DNA of 64,000 nucleotides from the NCBI RefSeq assembly GCF_055900595.2, contig NZ_CM148325.1; one strand, 5' to 3'. The translations under genes and the position numbers were made by a program. Below the pieces are notes generated by a model. That model was not told where the DNA came from. It ran no database searches and saw nothing but the letters and a program-made list of their open reading frames with translations. Below, in pieces: positions 45,946-52,770 of this stretch. Every line of letters starts with the position of its first letter. Positions within the stretch are counted from its first letter, which is position 1.

Positions 45946-46476
45946 TTATTGTTTAACCCATAATAATTCATTGACATTGAATCCCAACTTTTGAGCGGTT
46001 CGCACATAGTCTGCTTTTACTTTATCTGGAATAGTTGGGGTCCTTGCCAGAATCCATAGGTATTCTCTGTTCGAACCACTAACAAGAGCATACTTATACT
46101 CATCATCCAGTTTGATTACATTATAGCCACCATAGAAGGGGCCAAAAAACGAAACCTTCAACGCTGCAGTTTTAGTATCTCCAGTAAAGTATGCTTTACC
46201 TTCGCTCTCGCTCCATTTATTTTTCGTTGGATCGTATCCACGGTTAAGTACACGAATCCCTCCGTCGTTCCGTTTTCCATAAGTAGCGCTGACCTGCTCC
46301 AGACCACGTTCGAACCGGTTCTCGAGGCGAGCTATTTCATACCATTTTCCGAGGTAGCGGTTGGCGTCAAAATTTGTAATCGGCTGCACACCTTTAGGTG
46401 GTGTCGGGGCCTTACATGCTATAAGAGTGAAAGAGAGTGCAATGCCAGTCAACACAGGCCATAACTTCATAATCAA
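45946..46476 (-). CDS. Outer-membrane lipocalin (Blc homolog) lipoprotein, prophage moron
   Basis: 176-aa ORF with lipobox (...SFTLIAC) and lipocalin core FDANRYLGKWYEIARLENRFERGLE...YLWILARTPTIP; opposite strand to flanking late genes. Confidence 0.85.
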   Translation of the reverse strand: MIMKLWPVLTGIALSFTLIACKAPTPPKGVQPITNFDANRYLGKWYEIARLENRFERGLEQVSATYGKRNDGGIRVLNRGYDPTKNKWSESEGKAYFTGDTKTAALKVSFFGPFYGGYNVIKLDDEYKYALVSGSNREYLWILARTPTIPDKVKADYVRTAQKLGFNVNELLWVKQ

Positions 46477-46662
46477 TCCTGTACTTTTGATAGTTGAGAG
46501 TAAGTATGAAAGATAGATGATTACGACCGATCACTTAAAGAACTTTCATACTATATTAGGAATAGTCCATAACAGAAAAATTGTCAGTGATGACGTCAGA
46601 AAGGCAATTTATTCCGTGCACTACACAGTTTATGTGTTAATGAATTAGTCAAGGGGGAGGAT

Positions 46663-47622
46663 ATGATAAAAAAACCTGTGATTGGAATCAGCGGTTGTTT
46701 GGCCGGTTCTGCTGTTCGTTTTGATGGTGGTCACAAAAGAGCTGACTTTTTAATGGACAAATTAGTGGAATGGGTAACATTCAGACCAGTATGTCCGGAA
46801 ATGGCTATAGGGCTGCCAGTTCCGCGTCCTGCTCTACGTCTTGTGCGCTCGAAGCAAGGAAATATACGGATGTGTTTCAGCCACGACCAGAATGAGGATG
46901 TGACAGAGAGAATGACAGAGTTTAGTCGTTCTTATATGCACAAATTAAAGGATGTATCGGGGTTTGTGGTTTGTGCTAAATCTCCCAGCTGTGGCATGGA
47001 GCGCGTGCGTGTCTATGATGAAAATGGTAATCGAGGTCGTAAAGATGGAGTGGGACTATTTACGAGCACTTTGATGGAAAAGTTTTCCTGGCTACCGGTT
47101 GAAGAGGATGGGCGATTACATGATCCAGTGCTTCGTGAGAATTTTGTTGAAAGAGTTTTTGCTTTGCATGAGCTCAATCACCTTTACAAGGAGAAATTAT
47201 CAAGAAGAGAGTTATTAGCTTTTCATAGTCGTTATAAGCTTCAGTTGTTGGCGCATAGTCAGGCAGGCTATAAAGATATGGGACCATTTGTGGCTGCAAT
47301 ACACGAGTGGGCGGACCTTGAATCATACTTTGAGGTGTATCGTGATAAGCTGATGGCGATTCTCAGAAAACCTGCATCACGTAAAAATCACACGAATGTG
47401 CTGATGCATATACAGGGGTATTTTAGTAATTACTTAAGTACACGCCAGCGTAAAGAGTTGACCGAGGTTATACTTAACTATCGCTTTGGCACATTGCCTC
47501 TTCTTGCGCCGTTGACTCTGCTGAAGCATTATCTGGGTGAGTATCCTAATGATTACTTGCTTACACAGAATTACTTCGATCCCTATCCGGAAGAACTGGC
47601 TCTAAGACTGATGGTGAATTAA
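46663..47622 (+). CDS. DUF523 (TudS-like Fe-S) / DUF1722 (YbgA-like) fusion protein, prophage moron
   Basis: 319-aa ORF; N-terminus MIKKPVIGISGCLAGSAVRFDGGHKRADFL... with conserved cysteines; C-terminal half resembles YbgA/DUF1722; RBS AAGGGGGAGG. Confidence 0.7.
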   Translation: MIKKPVIGISGCLAGSAVRFDGGHKRADFLMDKLVEWVTFRPVCPEMAIGLPVPRPALRLVRSKQGNIRMCFSHDQNEDVTERMTEFSRSYMHKLKDVSGFVVCAKSPSCGMERVRVYDENGNRGRKDGVGLFTSTLMEKFSWLPVEEDGRLHDPVLRENFVERVFALHELNHLYKEKLSRRELLAFHSRYKLQLLAHSQAGYKDMGPFVAAIHEWADLESYFEVYRDKLMAILRKPASRKNHTNVLMHIQGYFSNYLSTRQRKELTEVILNYRFGTLPLLAPLTLLKHYLGEYPNDYLLTQNYFDPYPEELALRLMVN

Positions 47623-48028
47623 CTGTATGCGATATCATCTGAAAGTGATGAGTTCCTGTATGCAGGATATTTACAATCGTAAAAACTACACTATGATACC
47701 CATAGTGTCAGTTTGTATAAAAATCCTGTTCACGCTGAAGAAAACATTGAGATGCAATTTAATGTTGGTAAACATACCAGCCCCAAAAGATTTTATTCAA
47801 TCTGTTTTTATATGAAGATATTTCAAGTGAATATTAAGAGTATATAATATTATTATTGCACGCAGCTATTATAATATAACAGATTAGTTTAATGATTTGT
47901 TTTTTGTGAGTTAAACACATGGTTTTATAGTTGTGATGCAATGAGATTTTCCTTATTGTTGAACTGGCGAATATTGATTTTCCACCTATACTTACCTGGT
48001 GTAACCCCAGTGATATCAGGTGGATAAT

Positions 48029-48742
48029 ATGCCATACATATGTTCTGTCATTTTGGTGTTGAACTCGTTTGGTGTCCGAATTGGTAAAGAAGATATTTTG
48101 TTTAAAAAAGGAAGTGCTGTCCTCATCGAATACAATTTAAAAGATCTTTTTTCGTCAAATACAGATCATCTAATGATCGTAGATGTTGAGGAGAAAACAG
48201 TTAATGATTTCTTTAAAAACTACACACTCTCACCTTTTTCTGTAAGAAGGTTTTATCCGTCATACTTGATAGTAGAATGTGAAGATTTTTCATTGTTAAG
48301 GAACTTGGTTGCATGCTTGAATTGTGATAGCAAAACCGTGGATGTAGTTAGAAATCAAATATCACTTGCATGTCTTGCTGTCTTATCTTCAGAGAAAATA
48401 GTGCAAAGTTTTTTGTTCGGAAGTCTTAATAGCTTAGGTTGTAAAGTTAAGGCTATTATTCACTCGGATATCTCAGCGTCATGGAGACTTTGTGATATAT
48501 CTTCAAGATTATATATGAGCGAGAGTTTGTTAAAAAGAAAATTAAAAGACGAAGGATTATCGTTTAGTAAATTAATTCTTGAAGAACGAATGATGATGGC
48601 GCAAAGATTATTGATCTACAGTAACCATACTGTCGGCAAGGTGGCGGGAATATGCGGGTATGACAATGCATCATATTTTGTAAGTGTTTTTAGAGGATAT
48701 TTTGGTGTGCCTCCGCACCAATATTTATCAAGATTTTCTTAG
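48029..48742 (+). CDS. AraC/XylS-family transcriptional regulator (prophage-encoded), in AT-rich block
   Basis: ORF MPYICSVILVLNSFGVRIGKEDILFKKG...; C-terminal AraC HTH (...SESLLKRKLKDEGLSFSKLILEERMMMAQRLLIYSNHTVGKVAGICGYDNASYFVSVFRGYFGVPPHQY); RBS AGGTGG. Confidence 0.8.
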   Translation: MPYICSVILVLNSFGVRIGKEDILFKKGSAVLIEYNLKDLFSSNTDHLMIVDVEEKTVNDFFKNYTLSPFSVRRFYPSYLIVECEDFSLLRNLVACLNCDSKTVDVVRNQISLACLAVLSSEKIVQSFLFGSLNSLGCKVKAIIHSDISASWRLCDISSRLYMSESLLKRKLKDEGLSFSKLILEERMMMAQRLLIYSNHTVGKVAGICGYDNASYFVSVFRGYFGVPPHQYLSRFS

Positions 48743-48932
48743 AAGATATGATGTGATGGCATTTTATAAAGTTATTTTTTGAAGTGTAAGATTATACGAT
48801 ATTTTTAGCTACGCCAGAATAATTGCTGGCGTTTTTCTTTTTGAATAGATGTTCGGGCCTTACGCTAATGTAACTTCTTTCCTTCTTCGAACCAAACCGT
48901 GTACACCATCCGTTATCTGCGGAGGTGAGGCT

Positions 48933-49148
48933 ATGAAATCCATGGATAAGTTAACAACGGGCATCGCCTACAGCACCTCTGCAGGCAGTGCTGGCTACTG
49001 GTTTTTACAGTTGCTCGATAAAGTCACGCCCTCACAGTGGGCGGCAATAGGTGTATTGGGTAGTCTGGTATTTGGCATGCTGACGTATCTGACAAACCTT
49101 TATTTCAAGATTAAAGAAGACAGGCGTAAGGTTGCGAGAAGAGAGTAA
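48933..49148 (+). CDS. Holin (EssD/lambda S-like class)
   Basis: 71-aa [74 protein letters not shown]; RBS GAGGTGAGG. Confidence 0.85.
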
Positions 49149-49152
49149 TCCA

Positions 49153-49704
49153 ATGACTCAAGACTATGAACTGGTTGTGAAAGGAGTTCGCAATTTTGAG
49201 AATAAAGTGGCGGTAACTGTAGCCTTACGGGACAAAAAACACTTTGACGGTGAAATTTTTGACCTGGACATCTCGCTGGACCGTGTTGAAGGTGCCGCGC
49301 TGGAGTTTTATGAGGCAGCAGCCAGAAGGAGCATCAGACAGGTCTTCCTGGATGTTGCTGCCGGGTTATGTGAAGGGGATGAGCAGTCGCCGGAAAAGCG
49401 CCCCATAATTTTAGAGGCGCAGAATGTGTGGATAACCTACAAAGGAAAGCTACCGGGAAGAATTACTGGTTCTCTGAAGACGCCACCGACGGCATTGCGG
49501 TCAGAAAAAGATGATATTGAATCGCCCATTGAAAAACTGGAGGGCAGCGTCGCTGATCTGAATAAAAAATTGTCGGTGCTGATTCCTTCTGAAGATGAAA
49601 AAAAACGCCGCGATGAGCAGTTTGCGGCGTTTTACGATTATTGCATTGAAGTTACTCGCAGGAATTTTGTGAAGATTTTTGAGGAGGGTAAATCTCTTCA
49701 GTAA
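49153..49704 (+). CDS. Hypothetical protein inserted between holin and endolysin
   Basis: 183-aa ORF MTQDYELVVKGVRNFENKVAVTVALRDKKHFDGEIFDLDISLDRVEG...; RBS GAGAG; no recognisable motif. Confidence 0.5.
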   Translation: MTQDYELVVKGVRNFENKVAVTVALRDKKHFDGEIFDLDISLDRVEGAALEFYEAAARRSIRQVFLDVAAGLCEGDEQSPEKRPIILEAQNVWITYKGKLPGRITGSLKTPPTALRSEKDDIESPIEKLEGSVADLNKKLSVLIPSEDEKKRRDEQFAAFYDYCIEVTRRNFVKIFEEGKSLQ

Positions 49705-49912
49705 GCTTATTGGCGGACGCTGCAATTAATTCAGGAAGGTCCGCAAGGTCATCTGTCAGTGGATATGATGAAAAATCGGCGGCAGTTCTGTTAAGAAGCG
49801 CTTTAACTAATTCCTTTTCCTTCTCCGGCAACAAGTTGATTAGAGCTACGACTGCTTGCCTGAGTGCGATTAAATCAGCAAAAGTTTGTTTAGGTAGATT
49901 TGTGTAATCCAT
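49652..49912 (-). CDS. Hypothetical protein, convergent and 3'-overlapping the preceding gene
   Basis: 86-aa ORF MDYTNLPKQTFADLIALRQAVVALINLLPEKEKELVKALLNRTAADFSSYPL...; RBS GAGG 7 nt upstream; 53-nt 3' overlap with the plus-strand ORF. Confidence 0.35.
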   Translation of the reverse strand: MDYTNLPKQTFADLIALRQAVVALINLLPEKEKELVKALLNRTAADFSSYPLTDDLADLPELIAASANKLTEEIYPPQKSSQNSCE

Positions 49913-50025
49913 AGTCGCCTCTGTGTTTATCAGATTGACATCCTCCTCCCGCCAGTGCCCATCACTGGTGAGGTAAGATTTAACATATCCGGGGATTTGA
50001 AGCCGATAAATCCTGATAAATATCC

Positions 50026-51053
<1,028 letters not shown>

Positions 51054-51416
51054 ATTAATATTAAATCGGATTATTTTTAGCGCTGAATGTGAAATTTAAA
51101 TAAAAAGGACTCTTCCATGAGTCAAAATCCTTGAAATCTTAAGGGTAAGATAAAAGGTCATTAGACAGAATGACACGTTTTATTAATAAATAAAGCTATT
51201 GTTTCATTCGTGTGTTTTTCTTTACAAAAGTAATCCTTGCTATGGTTGGTTAATCATGCGTTAATGGTGTTCTGGTTTGTTACAAAATTATCTGAAGCAG
51301 TCATTGTTATAATTTTATTATTTGTACCTCTTGAGATTTCCTTGTTGGTTTTTCTCTCTGATATTTTTTTTCGGACCATTCTGCCCAAGGGCTAACTTCT
51401 TCAAAAGGTAATAATG

Positions 51417-51629
51417 ATGTCTAACAAAATGACTGGTTTAGTGAAATGGTTTAACCCTGAAAAAGGTTTTGGTTTCATCACGCCGAAAGATGGTAGCAAA
51501 GATGTGTTTGTCCATTTCTCAGCTATTCAGAGCAACGATTTCAAAACGTTAACTGAGAATCAGGAAGTCGAATTTGGTATTGAGAACGGACCTAAAGGCC
51601 CCGCGGCTGTTCATGTTGTGGCACTTTGA
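51417..51629 (+). CDS. cspI: Cold-shock protein (CspA family; CspI-like)
   Basis: 70-aa [73 protein letters not shown]; preceded by ~360-bp untranslated AT-rich leader. Confidence 0.85.
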
Positions 51630-51828
51630 GGTAGATAATATTACAAACCATATTCACTTTAGATGCCCGTGTTGCCATGGTTCTCAGTATAGAACATCAT
51701 CTTTTGATGTTTCTGACAGGAATCCTTTCGGGGCAAAATGTATCTTTTGTAAATCAATGATGATTACATTTGATAATATTTCACAATACTTAAATGTTAG
51801 CCGTCTATCGTTAGATTTAAGAAAGTGA
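51613..51828 (+). CDS. Candidate small zinc-ribbon-like protein (CPCC...CxxC)
   Basis: [51 protein letters not shown]...; overlaps csp 3' end; weak RBS; followed by terminator. Confidence 0.25.
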
Positions 51829-51833
51829 AAATG

Positions 51834-51858
51834 AAGGCTCCTTCGGGAGCTTTTTTTC
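51834..51858 (+). terminator. Rho-independent terminator
   Basis: GCTCC-ttcg-GGAGC stem followed by TTTTTTT. Confidence 0.65.
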
Positions 51859-51900
51859 TTAGTGTCTAGTCGATGGATACTCACATAATACGGTAACATT

Positions 51901-52131
51901 ATGAAAAAAATAATAGTTTTTTTTAACTCTGAACCAGCAATGGTAGTGCCAGTGATGACCGGAGTTAACACCATCATGCGTGAATATCCAAATGGCGAAA
52001 CAACACACCTCACTGTAATGGCTGCAGGGTTTCCATCTCTGACCGGAGATCATAAAATCATTTATGTAGCAGCGGATCGACATGTAACTTCAGAAGAAAT
52101 TCTGGAAGCAGCAATGAGACTCTTGAATTGA
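51901..52131 (+). CDS. Small prophage protein (YdfK/YnaE-like, tentative)
   Basis: 76-aa ORF MKKIIVFFNSEPAMVVPVMTGVNTIMREYPNGETTHLTVMAAGFPSLTGDHKIIYVAADRHVTSEEILEAAMRLLN; family assignment from memory. Confidence 0.45.
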   Translation: MKKIIVFFNSEPAMVVPVMTGVNTIMREYPNGETTHLTVMAAGFPSLTGDHKIIYVAADRHVTSEEILEAAMRLLN

Positions 52132-52303
52132 TTTGATTCTAATGCATTGATAATAAATGATAATCATCTTTATCTGTTTGTGTGAAATTTAGACCGTCGT
52201 ATGTTGATTATTGCGATGTTTCATCTTATCTTTTATACGTTTGCTCCATATAATTGACACTACTGTGTACCAGGAAAGTCATAACAGACTAAAAGAGGAA
52301 ATG

Positions 52304-52477
52304 ATGAACATTGAAGAGTTAAAAACAAAAACAGAAGCAGATATTTCTGAATATATAACAAAAAAAATCATTGAGCTTAAGAAAAAGACCGGGAAAGAAG
52401 TTACCAGTATCCAGTTTACTGCACGGGAAAAAATGACTGGTCTTGAAAGCTATGATATCAAGATTGATTTAATCTAG
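52304..52477 (+). CDS. gnsB: GnsA/GnsB-family protein
   Basis: 57-aa ORF MNIEELKTKTEADISEYITKKIIELKKKTGKEVTSIQFTAREKMTGLESYDIKIDLI; RBS AGAGGA. Confidence 0.8.
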   Translation: MNIEELKTKTEADISEYITKKIIELKKKTGKEVTSIQFTAREKMTGLESYDIKIDLI

Positions 52478-52770
52478 TCTGTTTAGTATTAGCATCAATT
52501 TCTCATCAGATGCTATTCAACAATACAAATTACCCATAAACCTCGTTTTTACGGGGTTTTGTTATATTTAAACATTACCGAATAGGTATAAATCTCGATT
52601 GTCGATGGTATTGGTTGTGTGACAATACCTAGTCTTTCCGGTATGCCTGATGAGAATACAAACGACAGATTATGTAAGGGAAACGCGCTGAATCTTTAAC
52701 TCTTTCATGCTGAGTGATTTGACGTTATATTTTTAGCCGTAAGTGAAGAGCAAACGCATGGAGCGACAAA

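Follow-up and report, generated by a model that had tools for sequence, protein, structure and literature searches.

The lysis cassette of a Qin-type Escherichia coli prophage carries two convergent genes between its holin gene (S) and its endolysin gene (R). The cassette lies within the window, a 64,000-nucleotide (nt) stretch of contig NZ_CM148325.1 (RefSeq assembly GCF_055900595.2), and the two genes occupy positions 49153 to 49912. Gene Y (49153-49704 in its ATG form) is read on the plus strand and encodes 183 amino acid residues (aa); gene X (49652-49912) is read on the minus strand and encodes 86 aa. The span is best explained as a variable accessory slot of a phage-21/Qin-type cassette with the order S - ydfR - R - Rz, and not as a foreign block which splits a fixed S-R pair. 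Y is probably a late gene of a known family, and X a moron-like antisense unit carried in the slot.

Both open reading frames (ORFs) were recognised in a preliminary description of this DNA, together with their ribosome-binding sites (GAGAG and GAGG) and a 53-nt convergent overlap between holin and endolysin; coordinates and sequence confirm these features. The Shine-Dalgarno sequence GAGAG of Y is located 7 nt before its ATG. The corresponding GAGG of X (49918-49921, minus strand) is 5 nt before its ATG, and the 3' ends of the two genes overlap at 49652-49704.

The content of the S-R junction varies between related prophages. It was compared in 88 loci with a readable interval from phage records, E. 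coli genomes and IMG/VR; these loci were picked by similarity to the window region via a single protein, and counts among them are biased towards relatives of the query and do not measure prevalence. A DUF1327 gene follows the holin gene at a distance of 4-8 nt in the window, in K-12 Qin and in all comparison loci but one (87 of 88); in that one, L009, only the tail and a C-terminal domain are present. Short ydfR is the sole resident in 33 loci. The Qin prophage of K-12 has the order essQ-ydfR-rrrQ, with the ydfR stop codon overlapping the start of rrrQ; it is without the cassette seen here, and ~92 nt are found in place of 657 nt of the window (49359-50015). Stx2a phages, PA2 and 24B share the holin and lysozyme types of the window, and their S and R genes are immediate neighbours (a matched place of 738 nt); YdfR itself is therefore an optional resident of the junction. 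The preliminary description took holin and endolysin to be normally adjacent; this is correct for the Stx2a-type relatives and incorrect for K-12 Qin. Among 5426 complete E. coli genomes, 295 contain at least 80% of the cassette.

The slot can also hold other antisense genes. Three ORFs which are unrelated to X are found behind the same conserved block (described below): one of 90 aa (phrog_2411; L005, 2047-2319, minus strand), one of 104 aa (phrog_1853; L047-type loci) and one of 233 aa (L008, 2239-2937, minus strand). The 233-aa ORF overlaps an upstream 263-aa plus-strand ORF by ~250 nt. Pfam searches gave no hits for the 233-aa and 104-aa proteins, and PADLOC searches found nothing for the 233-aa and 90-aa proteins. 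This presence and absence of cargo among relatives supports the earlier proposal of an accessory cargo site in this interval.

Y is a member of the YdfR family. Its residues 1-112 (49153-49488) match DUF1327/YdfR (PF07041) over nearly the whole Pfam model (1-92 of 93; E 4.9e-42), and all 183 residues match phrog_2091 end to end; a 296-aa relative belongs to phrog_1085. The plus-strand protein, previously described as having no recognisable motif, is thus a conserved resident of the lysis cassette in this lineage. A PDB sequence search with Y found no match, and nor did searches against NCBIfam and the PADLOC toxin and defence models.

The remaining 71 residues of Y (113-183; 49489-49704) form a predicted helical tail, fused in frame. 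The tail consists of a coiled-coil-like part (SEKDDIES...KLSVL) and a conserved end, EKKRRDEQFAAFYDYCIEVTRRNFVKIFEEGKSLQ. An alignment of the family (A1) shows a mosaic: a DUF1327 core, two alternative domain ends, a coiled-coil-like SEKDDIES...FAAFYDYC segment and alternative C-termini. The tail also aligns with the C-terminal half of a free-standing 73-aa gene of Salmonella prophages (pairwise E 9e-6). The Kyte-Doolittle maximum over 19 residues is 0.81 for Y and 0.35 for its tail. The annotation pipeline PGAP recognises only the DUF1327 part (49153-49488) and labels Y a 'partial' YdfR pseudogene. This label looks wrong, because the codon score of the tail (+0.363 per codon) is the highest in the region and its ratio of nonsynonymous to synonymous polymorphism (pN/pS) is 0.46; the full-length form is a recurrent, selected family.

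A study of K-12 provides some background on the DUF1327 domain. Two-hybrid and pull-down/co-purification experiments showed binding of YdfR to the catalytic N-terminal half of RNase E, for which the first 72 residues of YdfR suffice (PMC13232886). The protein co-purifies with RNA and may bind it (PMC13232886). When proteins were overproduced, growth arrest was seen with YegJ only; YdfR caused few transcript changes (PMC13232886). Literature searches on DUF1327, WP_001557934 and lysis-cassette morons found nothing specific beyond this study.

Judged by its sequence, X is a genuine protein-coding gene. An antisense ORF of 86 codons is by itself within chance expectation, and the evidence comes from composition, variation and homology. 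The codon-usage log-odds of X (+0.146 per codon) are similar to those of the holin (0.141) and R (0.154), and all 47 shadow ORFs score below X (mean -0.09, maximum 0.115). X alleles within E. coli are 84-100% identical. Thirteen distinct intact alleles have 9, 8 and 16 variable sites at the first, second and third codon positions, with a pN/pS of 0.47; outside the Y overlap the counts are 7, 7 and 14, with a pN/pS of 0.48. The alleles also differ from one another by five in-frame indels.

X also has relatives at a distance. It matches phrog_2572 over 86 of 86 positions (E 4.4e-53), and RefSeq lists it as WP_001557934.1. A single-sequence search of 1.84 billion representatives, performed with no word index and reported with whole-library E-values, found homologues of 89-93 aa at E 4e-10 and 3e-8. 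With a profile, further members from Salmonella and metagenomes, outside the training set, were recovered (E 1e-34 to 1e-38), and the diverged homologues P0024 and P0026 likewise match phrog_2572. Homologues in Salmonella and other prophages are 38-55% identical to X, and the ORF is kept open. Six comparisons were made between clades; identity and BLOSUM score are highest in the X frame, and no other frame is free of stop codons (the shadow frame has 4-6). The earlier description had envisaged that the plus-strand protein might be known in this phage lineage and the minus-strand ORF not conserved; the former is the case, and the latter is not.

A 65-aa plus-strand ORF (49710-49907), antisense to X, was considered as the real gene and ruled out by its codon usage, its stop codons and the cross-clade scores. 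Its codon usage is -0.066 per codon and it has no Shine-Dalgarno sequence. Its pN/pS of 0.41 mimics purifying selection; it shares the wobble positions of X, and for this reason pN/pS alone cannot decide the frame. The scarcity of Tyr, His and Gln codons in X explains why the 65-aa frame stays largely open in all three clades.

The X protein is small and acidic (isoelectric point 4.6). Its predicted model has three helices, with a mean model confidence (pLDDT) of 75. No clear signal peptide and no convincing membrane segment were found in a Kyte-Doolittle analysis; the 19-residue maximum, 1.62, is borderline and the segment contains Asp, Arg and Gln. In the overlap region the partner tail is helical and better conserved, while the tail of X is of low complexity and poorly modelled. 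DUF1823, a name used in some phage records, matches at E 0.18 only and is rejected. Homology to the 90-aa antisense protein of Chlobot was also ruled out, as the two show no similarity. Both families are narrow (enterobacterial prophages) and already catalogued; by the tests run, they match no known toxin-antitoxin, defence or anti-CRISPR family.

X always converges on a partner ORF, with an overlap of 53-59 nt, in three late-region contexts. The overlap is 53 nt in the window and 59 nt in two diverged clades. In Salmonella prophages, which have different holins and a GH19 endolysin, an antisense X homologue is located after Rz and before the small terminase gene (Nu1); it converges on the free-standing 73-aa gene with a 59-nt overlap. 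In some other contigs, X converges on a 144-aa protein encoded downstream of TerB-like and DUF3927 genes, and in further contigs on a DUF1327-related protein of 243 or 116 aa; the overlap is again 59 nt in both. The last ~37 residues of the partner are conserved in all three clades. Tail-end and X appear to travel together as a convergent module in at least three late-region contexts. Read on the opposite strand, the last ~37 codons of the partner correspond to the 3' end of X, a spacer and a hairpin; X and the partner tail consequently have to occur together for physical reasons, and their association is no proof of a functional link.

In the third X clade (L093/L099), the middle of both the 243-aa and the 116-aa partner is matched by the C-terminus of K-12 YdfR (L102; EKLSEKVESYLQHQYSFKIENPANKHERPH...). 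Because of this match, K-12 ydfR looks like a deletion derivative which may have lost the remainder of the gene, X and most of the block.

The hairpin is found beyond the X stop codon (49654-49652), 18 nt further along the X strand. It lies at 49633-49598 (minus strand) and reads AAAACGCCGC, a 12-nt loop and GCGGCGTTTT, running into a T8 tract. The stem has 10 base pairs (bp) in the minimum free energy fold. On the opposite strand, the same bases encode KKRRDEQFAAF of Y. An 8-bp core pairs in nine of ten sequences from the three clades; L040 has one mismatch. One pair changes in a compensatory manner from G-C to A-U, and the partner protein changes at the same place from RR...AA to RHH...GVA. 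A strict promoter and terminator scan missed the hairpin because of its 12-nt loop. Hairpin and T8 tract are terminator-like and may be the own terminator of X.

The region upstream of X is also conserved. Its Shine-Dalgarno sequence is AAGGA with 6-nt spacing in the diverged clades, and a Shine-Dalgarno sequence and the start codon are kept in all three clades. A palindrome, CCAGTG-cccat-CACTGG (49952-49968), lies in the X leader, which is also the Y-R spacer; it is common to loci with X, the 233-aa cargo or the 104-aa cargo. Between the palindrome and X, the leader contains GGGAGGAGG (49931-49950, minus strand) followed by a three-codon mini-ORF, ATG TCA ATC TGA; this mini-ORF is kept in L003, and the third clade has ATG TGA there.

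Further upstream of X is the conserved block, ATATTTATCAGGATTTATC...TATGTT (49982-50023, minus strand), which abuts the R start codon. The left part of the block, ATATTTATCAGGnTTTATC, does not vary among the locus types aligned, and an element TATGTT or TATTGT follows it at a conserved 17-nt spacing across clades. The block is kept behind X, behind the three unrelated antisense ORFs, and in Salmonella and other contigs without an adjacent R. The 297-aa type does not have it, and in K-12 and the mEp460 type most of it is missing. The block may contain the X promoter: the candidate consists of TTTATC (50010-50005), a 17-nt spacer and TATGTT (49987-49982).

A working model can be proposed for the two genes. 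Y would be a late, Q-dependent gene of the YdfR family with the 71-residue helical tail fused in frame. X would be a small, acidic, three-helix cytoplasmic protein encoded in an antisense unit of its own; this unit would comprise the candidate promoter in the block next to the R start, a ~70-nt leader with the palindrome, the Shine-Dalgarno sequence, 86 codons, and the hairpin-T8 within the tail codons of Y. X would be transcribed from the repressed prophage. Q-modified late transcription would pass head-on through X and silence it, and the two RNAs would then be complementary. Expression in the lysogen and late shut-off are suggested by the orientation of X and by what is known of lambdoid late operons and morons. 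The preliminary description expected the whole insert to be co-expressed late in infection; this can apply to Y only, from the late promoter, as X is antisense to late transcription.

The X unit behaves like a moron with respect to position, orientation, presence and absence, composition and terminator; we infer its promoter and its expression. Our guess is that X most likely belongs to the protein-binding accessory factors of the lysogen, such as those for exclusion, immunity or anti-defence.

A number of observations weigh against this model. Firstly, X is not intact in all loci. Its start codon has changed from ATG to ACG in one allele lineage (seven loci), one allele is frameshifted, and IS3-family insertion sequence (IS) elements interrupt X at two different sites; X is consequently dispensable in cryptic prophages. 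Secondly, the signals are imperfect. The covariation in the hairpin comes from one event and lacks significance (its score is reached in 82 of 500 shuffles), and the T-run is strong only in the E. coli clade and weak in the others. The candidate promoter agrees with the consensus at 7 of 12 positions only, and the strict scan called no sigma-70 site before X. Short loci that have no antisense gene (L052, L077) keep the block too; its role could instead be in the translation of R, because R lacks an obvious Shine-Dalgarno sequence. Thirdly, the function of X is not assigned by similarity: nothing significant was found for X in Pfam, NCBIfam or PADLOC, nor in fold searches of its model against PDB and BFVD. 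The homology and structure searches called for in the preliminary description thus place Y in DUF1327 and X in phrog_2572, with no significant fold match for the latter.

The disruptions seen in these loci are of several kinds. The ACG lineage (L029-L034 and L041, all from IMG/VR) also lacks 21 nt, in frame, from the coiled-coil part of Y (~49540-49560), so that its Y has 176 aa. In L007, an IS3-family element lies inside X and Y is intact. Strain 2017-03-3CC (L104) has IS2 between holin and Y, and strain D2 (L103) has IS3 upstream of the holin; the three prophages with these insertions are otherwise identical. Independent IS insertions in the cassette fit the decay of cryptic prophages.

A more ambitious combination of these observations is conceivable and, in our judgement, unlikely. 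Lysis cassettes of the phage-21/Qin type would hold a dedicated antisense slot, with a promoter/leader block at the endolysin start and interchangeable cargo; four unrelated cargo genes have been seen. X and the tail of its partner would co-evolve, the hairpin being written in partner codons; these change from KRR...AA to RHH...GVA and the pairing is retained. Late head-on transcription and an RNA duplex would switch X off and modulate R and Rz at the transition from lysogeny to lysis. X, or X together with the tail, could then be a new factor in lysis timing or prophage immunity, with a possible link to RNase E binding by the YdfR domain.

It is quite unlikely that the antisense RNA matters and the X protein does not. 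An RNA which starts in the block next to R would be complementary to the S-Y-R-Rz message; it could damp leaky expression of lysis genes in lysogens, or tune R and Rz output and with it lysis timing. Its action would resemble that of lambda OOP on cII, or that of the type I antitoxin RNAs with 3' overlap in B. subtilis prophages. The retention of the block in L052 and L077, which have no antisense ORF, and its association with unrelated cargo genes are consistent with this, as are the position of the X unit wholly within the late transcript and the conservation of the 53-59 nt overlap and hairpin. However, the evolution of X is that of a protein, with a pN/pS of 0.48, in-frame indels and, across clades, better conservation of the X frame than of any other. 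The block is a candidate promoter only, none being called by the strict scan, and the K-12 and Stx2a cassettes do without such an element.

A toxin/immunity or toxin-antitoxin-like pair, which had been raised in the preliminary description, is very unlikely. X would neutralise Y or its tail, and the overlap would couple their expression. X is small and acidic, like many antitoxins and immunity proteins, and in all three clades and all three contexts it is accompanied by the conserved tail of a partner; this association is, however, forced by the DNA, as the last ~37 partner codons and the X 3' end with its hairpin are two strands of one sequence. The lineage which has lost the X start codon also has the seven-residue in-frame deletion in the Y tail; it is unclear whether the two changes are joined by function or by mere descent. 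In L007, by contrast, X is split and Y is intact. Neither protein matches toxin or defence models in PADLOC, Pfam or NCBIfam, and neither has a hydrophobic toxin-like segment. An AlphaFold2 (AF2) model of a Y tail-linker-X fusion, made from a shallow alignment, is not confident (pLDDT 46; predicted template modelling score, pTM, 0.25). The growth arrest confined to YegJ and the few transcript changes with YdfR (PMC13232886) also argue against a toxin, but K-12 YdfR is without the tail.

It is hardly credible that X is a gene-caller artefact, with the ~320 nt between Y and R being decaying non-coding DNA or encoding the 65-aa ORF: the shared wobble positions (pN/pS 0.41 against 0.48 for X), the largely open 65-aa frame in other clades, the low variation within E. 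coli (84-100% identity) and the X alleles with a lost start codon or a frameshift are outweighed by the shadow-like codon usage of that ORF (-0.066 against +0.146) and its lack of a Shine-Dalgarno sequence, by the cross-clade identity and BLOSUM scores of the X frame, which has no stop codons where the shadow frame has 4-6, and by the homologue E-values (4e-10 and 3e-8 for the single sequence; 1e-34 to 1e-38 for the profile).

The prophage which carries the cassette is of the Qin type, and in this region it is 100% identical to a Qin-type prophage present in E. coli HS and in many further strains. In these identical prophages RefSeq gives the order essQ, YdfR family protein (partial, pseudogene), WP_001557934.1 (minus strand), rrrQ and rzpQ. 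The Y tail and X have a GC content of 0.41-0.42; it is 0.46-0.52 in the holin, the DUF1327 part, R and Rz. The Y stop codon and R are 321 nt apart.

The holin (48933-49148, plus strand) is a 71-aa class II protein, an allele of essQ (phrog_9876 at E 1e-35, and phrog_20); RefSeq names it 'class II holin family protein'. It begins with an MKSM dual-start motif (48933-48944), presumably providing two possible starts as in class II pinholins. R (50026-50559, plus strand) is a 177-aa lysozyme, an allele of rrrQ, and matches the endolysin family phrog_7. Its N-terminus (50026-50110) is hydrophobic and Ala-rich, which we take to be of the kind seen in signal-arrest-release endolysins. R is followed by an Rz-like spanin (rzpQ, DUF2514; 50556-51053, plus strand), which belongs to a PHROGs spanin family and has an embedded lipoprotein ORF in another frame.

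An Rfam scan of 47600-52600 found only the cspA thermoregulator at cspI, and nothing in the X/Y region. The match (RF01766; 51259-51675, plus strand) is full-length, with 112.8 bits and E 3.7e-29; it spans the leader and coding region of cspI (51414-51629), just downstream of the lysis cassette. A second accessory cluster is found in the late region at ~46000-48742, between the Q antiterminator and the holin. It includes a lipocalin gene (minus strand; the RefSeq locus is identical), a YbgA-family gene (46663-47622) and a gene with an AraC-type helix-turn-helix domain (48020-48742); K-12 Qin has cspB and ynfU at this position. A hairpin with a T-run, ACGCCAG...CTGGCGTTTTTCTTTTT, is found at 48811-48832 (plus strand), ~100 nt upstream of the holin start. 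It could mark the end of the AraC-type gene, or could be a late terminator which is read through by Q-modified polymerase.

A prophage lysis cassette that is very common in E. coli and Shigella has a variable accessory site at its S-R junction. The states of this site are empty, ydfR, long ydfR, and ydfR with one of several antisense genes. The unit of block, leader, X and embedded hairpin provides a concrete, testable case for expression against a late operon. Y bears on the role of a widespread RNase E-binding phage family once extended by a tail, and X on whether small antisense genes affect lysis timing or prophage-conferred phenotypes. An annotation can also be corrected, as RefSeq labels the 183-aa Y a truncated pseudogene. 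The immediate impact is modest because both families are narrow, already catalogued and without known function.

Several known systems can be compared with the locus. K-12 YdfR, like Y, has the DUF1327 domain and is encoded between the class II holin gene essQ and the lysozyme gene rrrQ; K-12 Qin also shares with the window the same backbone and, downstream, cspI, ynfQ, ynfN and gnsB. K-12 YdfR has 103 residues and Y has 183, the difference being a different domain end and the added 71-residue tail; the K-12 ydfR stop codon overlaps the R start, whereas that of Y is 321 nt away from R. RNase E binding is a feature of K-12 YdfR, and the Y allele, which differs in sequence and length, may or may not share it.

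The anti-CRISPR AcrIIC4, an 88-aa helical bundle, resembles X in size and prophage origin. It is the top PDB structural hit for X, at values below significance (Foldseek E 4.5, template modelling score 0.33), and is among the weak sub-threshold profile hits (hidden Markov model E 0.12, collinear over ~62 residues). Neither fold nor profile hit is significant, and the resemblance is a lead only, not evidence. To our knowledge, E. coli and Salmonella have no type II-C Cas9.

Convergent, 3'-overlapping antisense pairs include OOP/cII of phage lambda and the type I systems txpA/RatA and bsrG/SR4 of Bacillus subtilis prophages. Like X and Y, these are convergent phage or prophage units with a 3' overlap of tens of nt and scope for RNA-RNA pairing. 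In contrast to them, X and Y both encode soluble proteins under purifying selection; there is no short hydrophobic toxin and no dedicated non-coding RNA.

The closest parallel in arrangement is with morons such as bor of phage lambda, an accessory gene located just after Rz, opposite in strand to the late operon and expressed from the prophage. X, like bor, is a small accessory gene at the lysis cassette which opposes late transcription. X is moron-like in being present or absent among collinear phages, in having a lower GC content than its flanks and in having its own terminator-like hairpin. X and Bor are unrelated, and X has a candidate promoter and inferred lysogen expression only. X also differs from lambdoid morons in that its 3' end and terminator are, unusually, embedded in the coding sequence of a late gene. 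The Salmonella homologue of X is found exactly at the post-Rz position which bor occupies in lambda.

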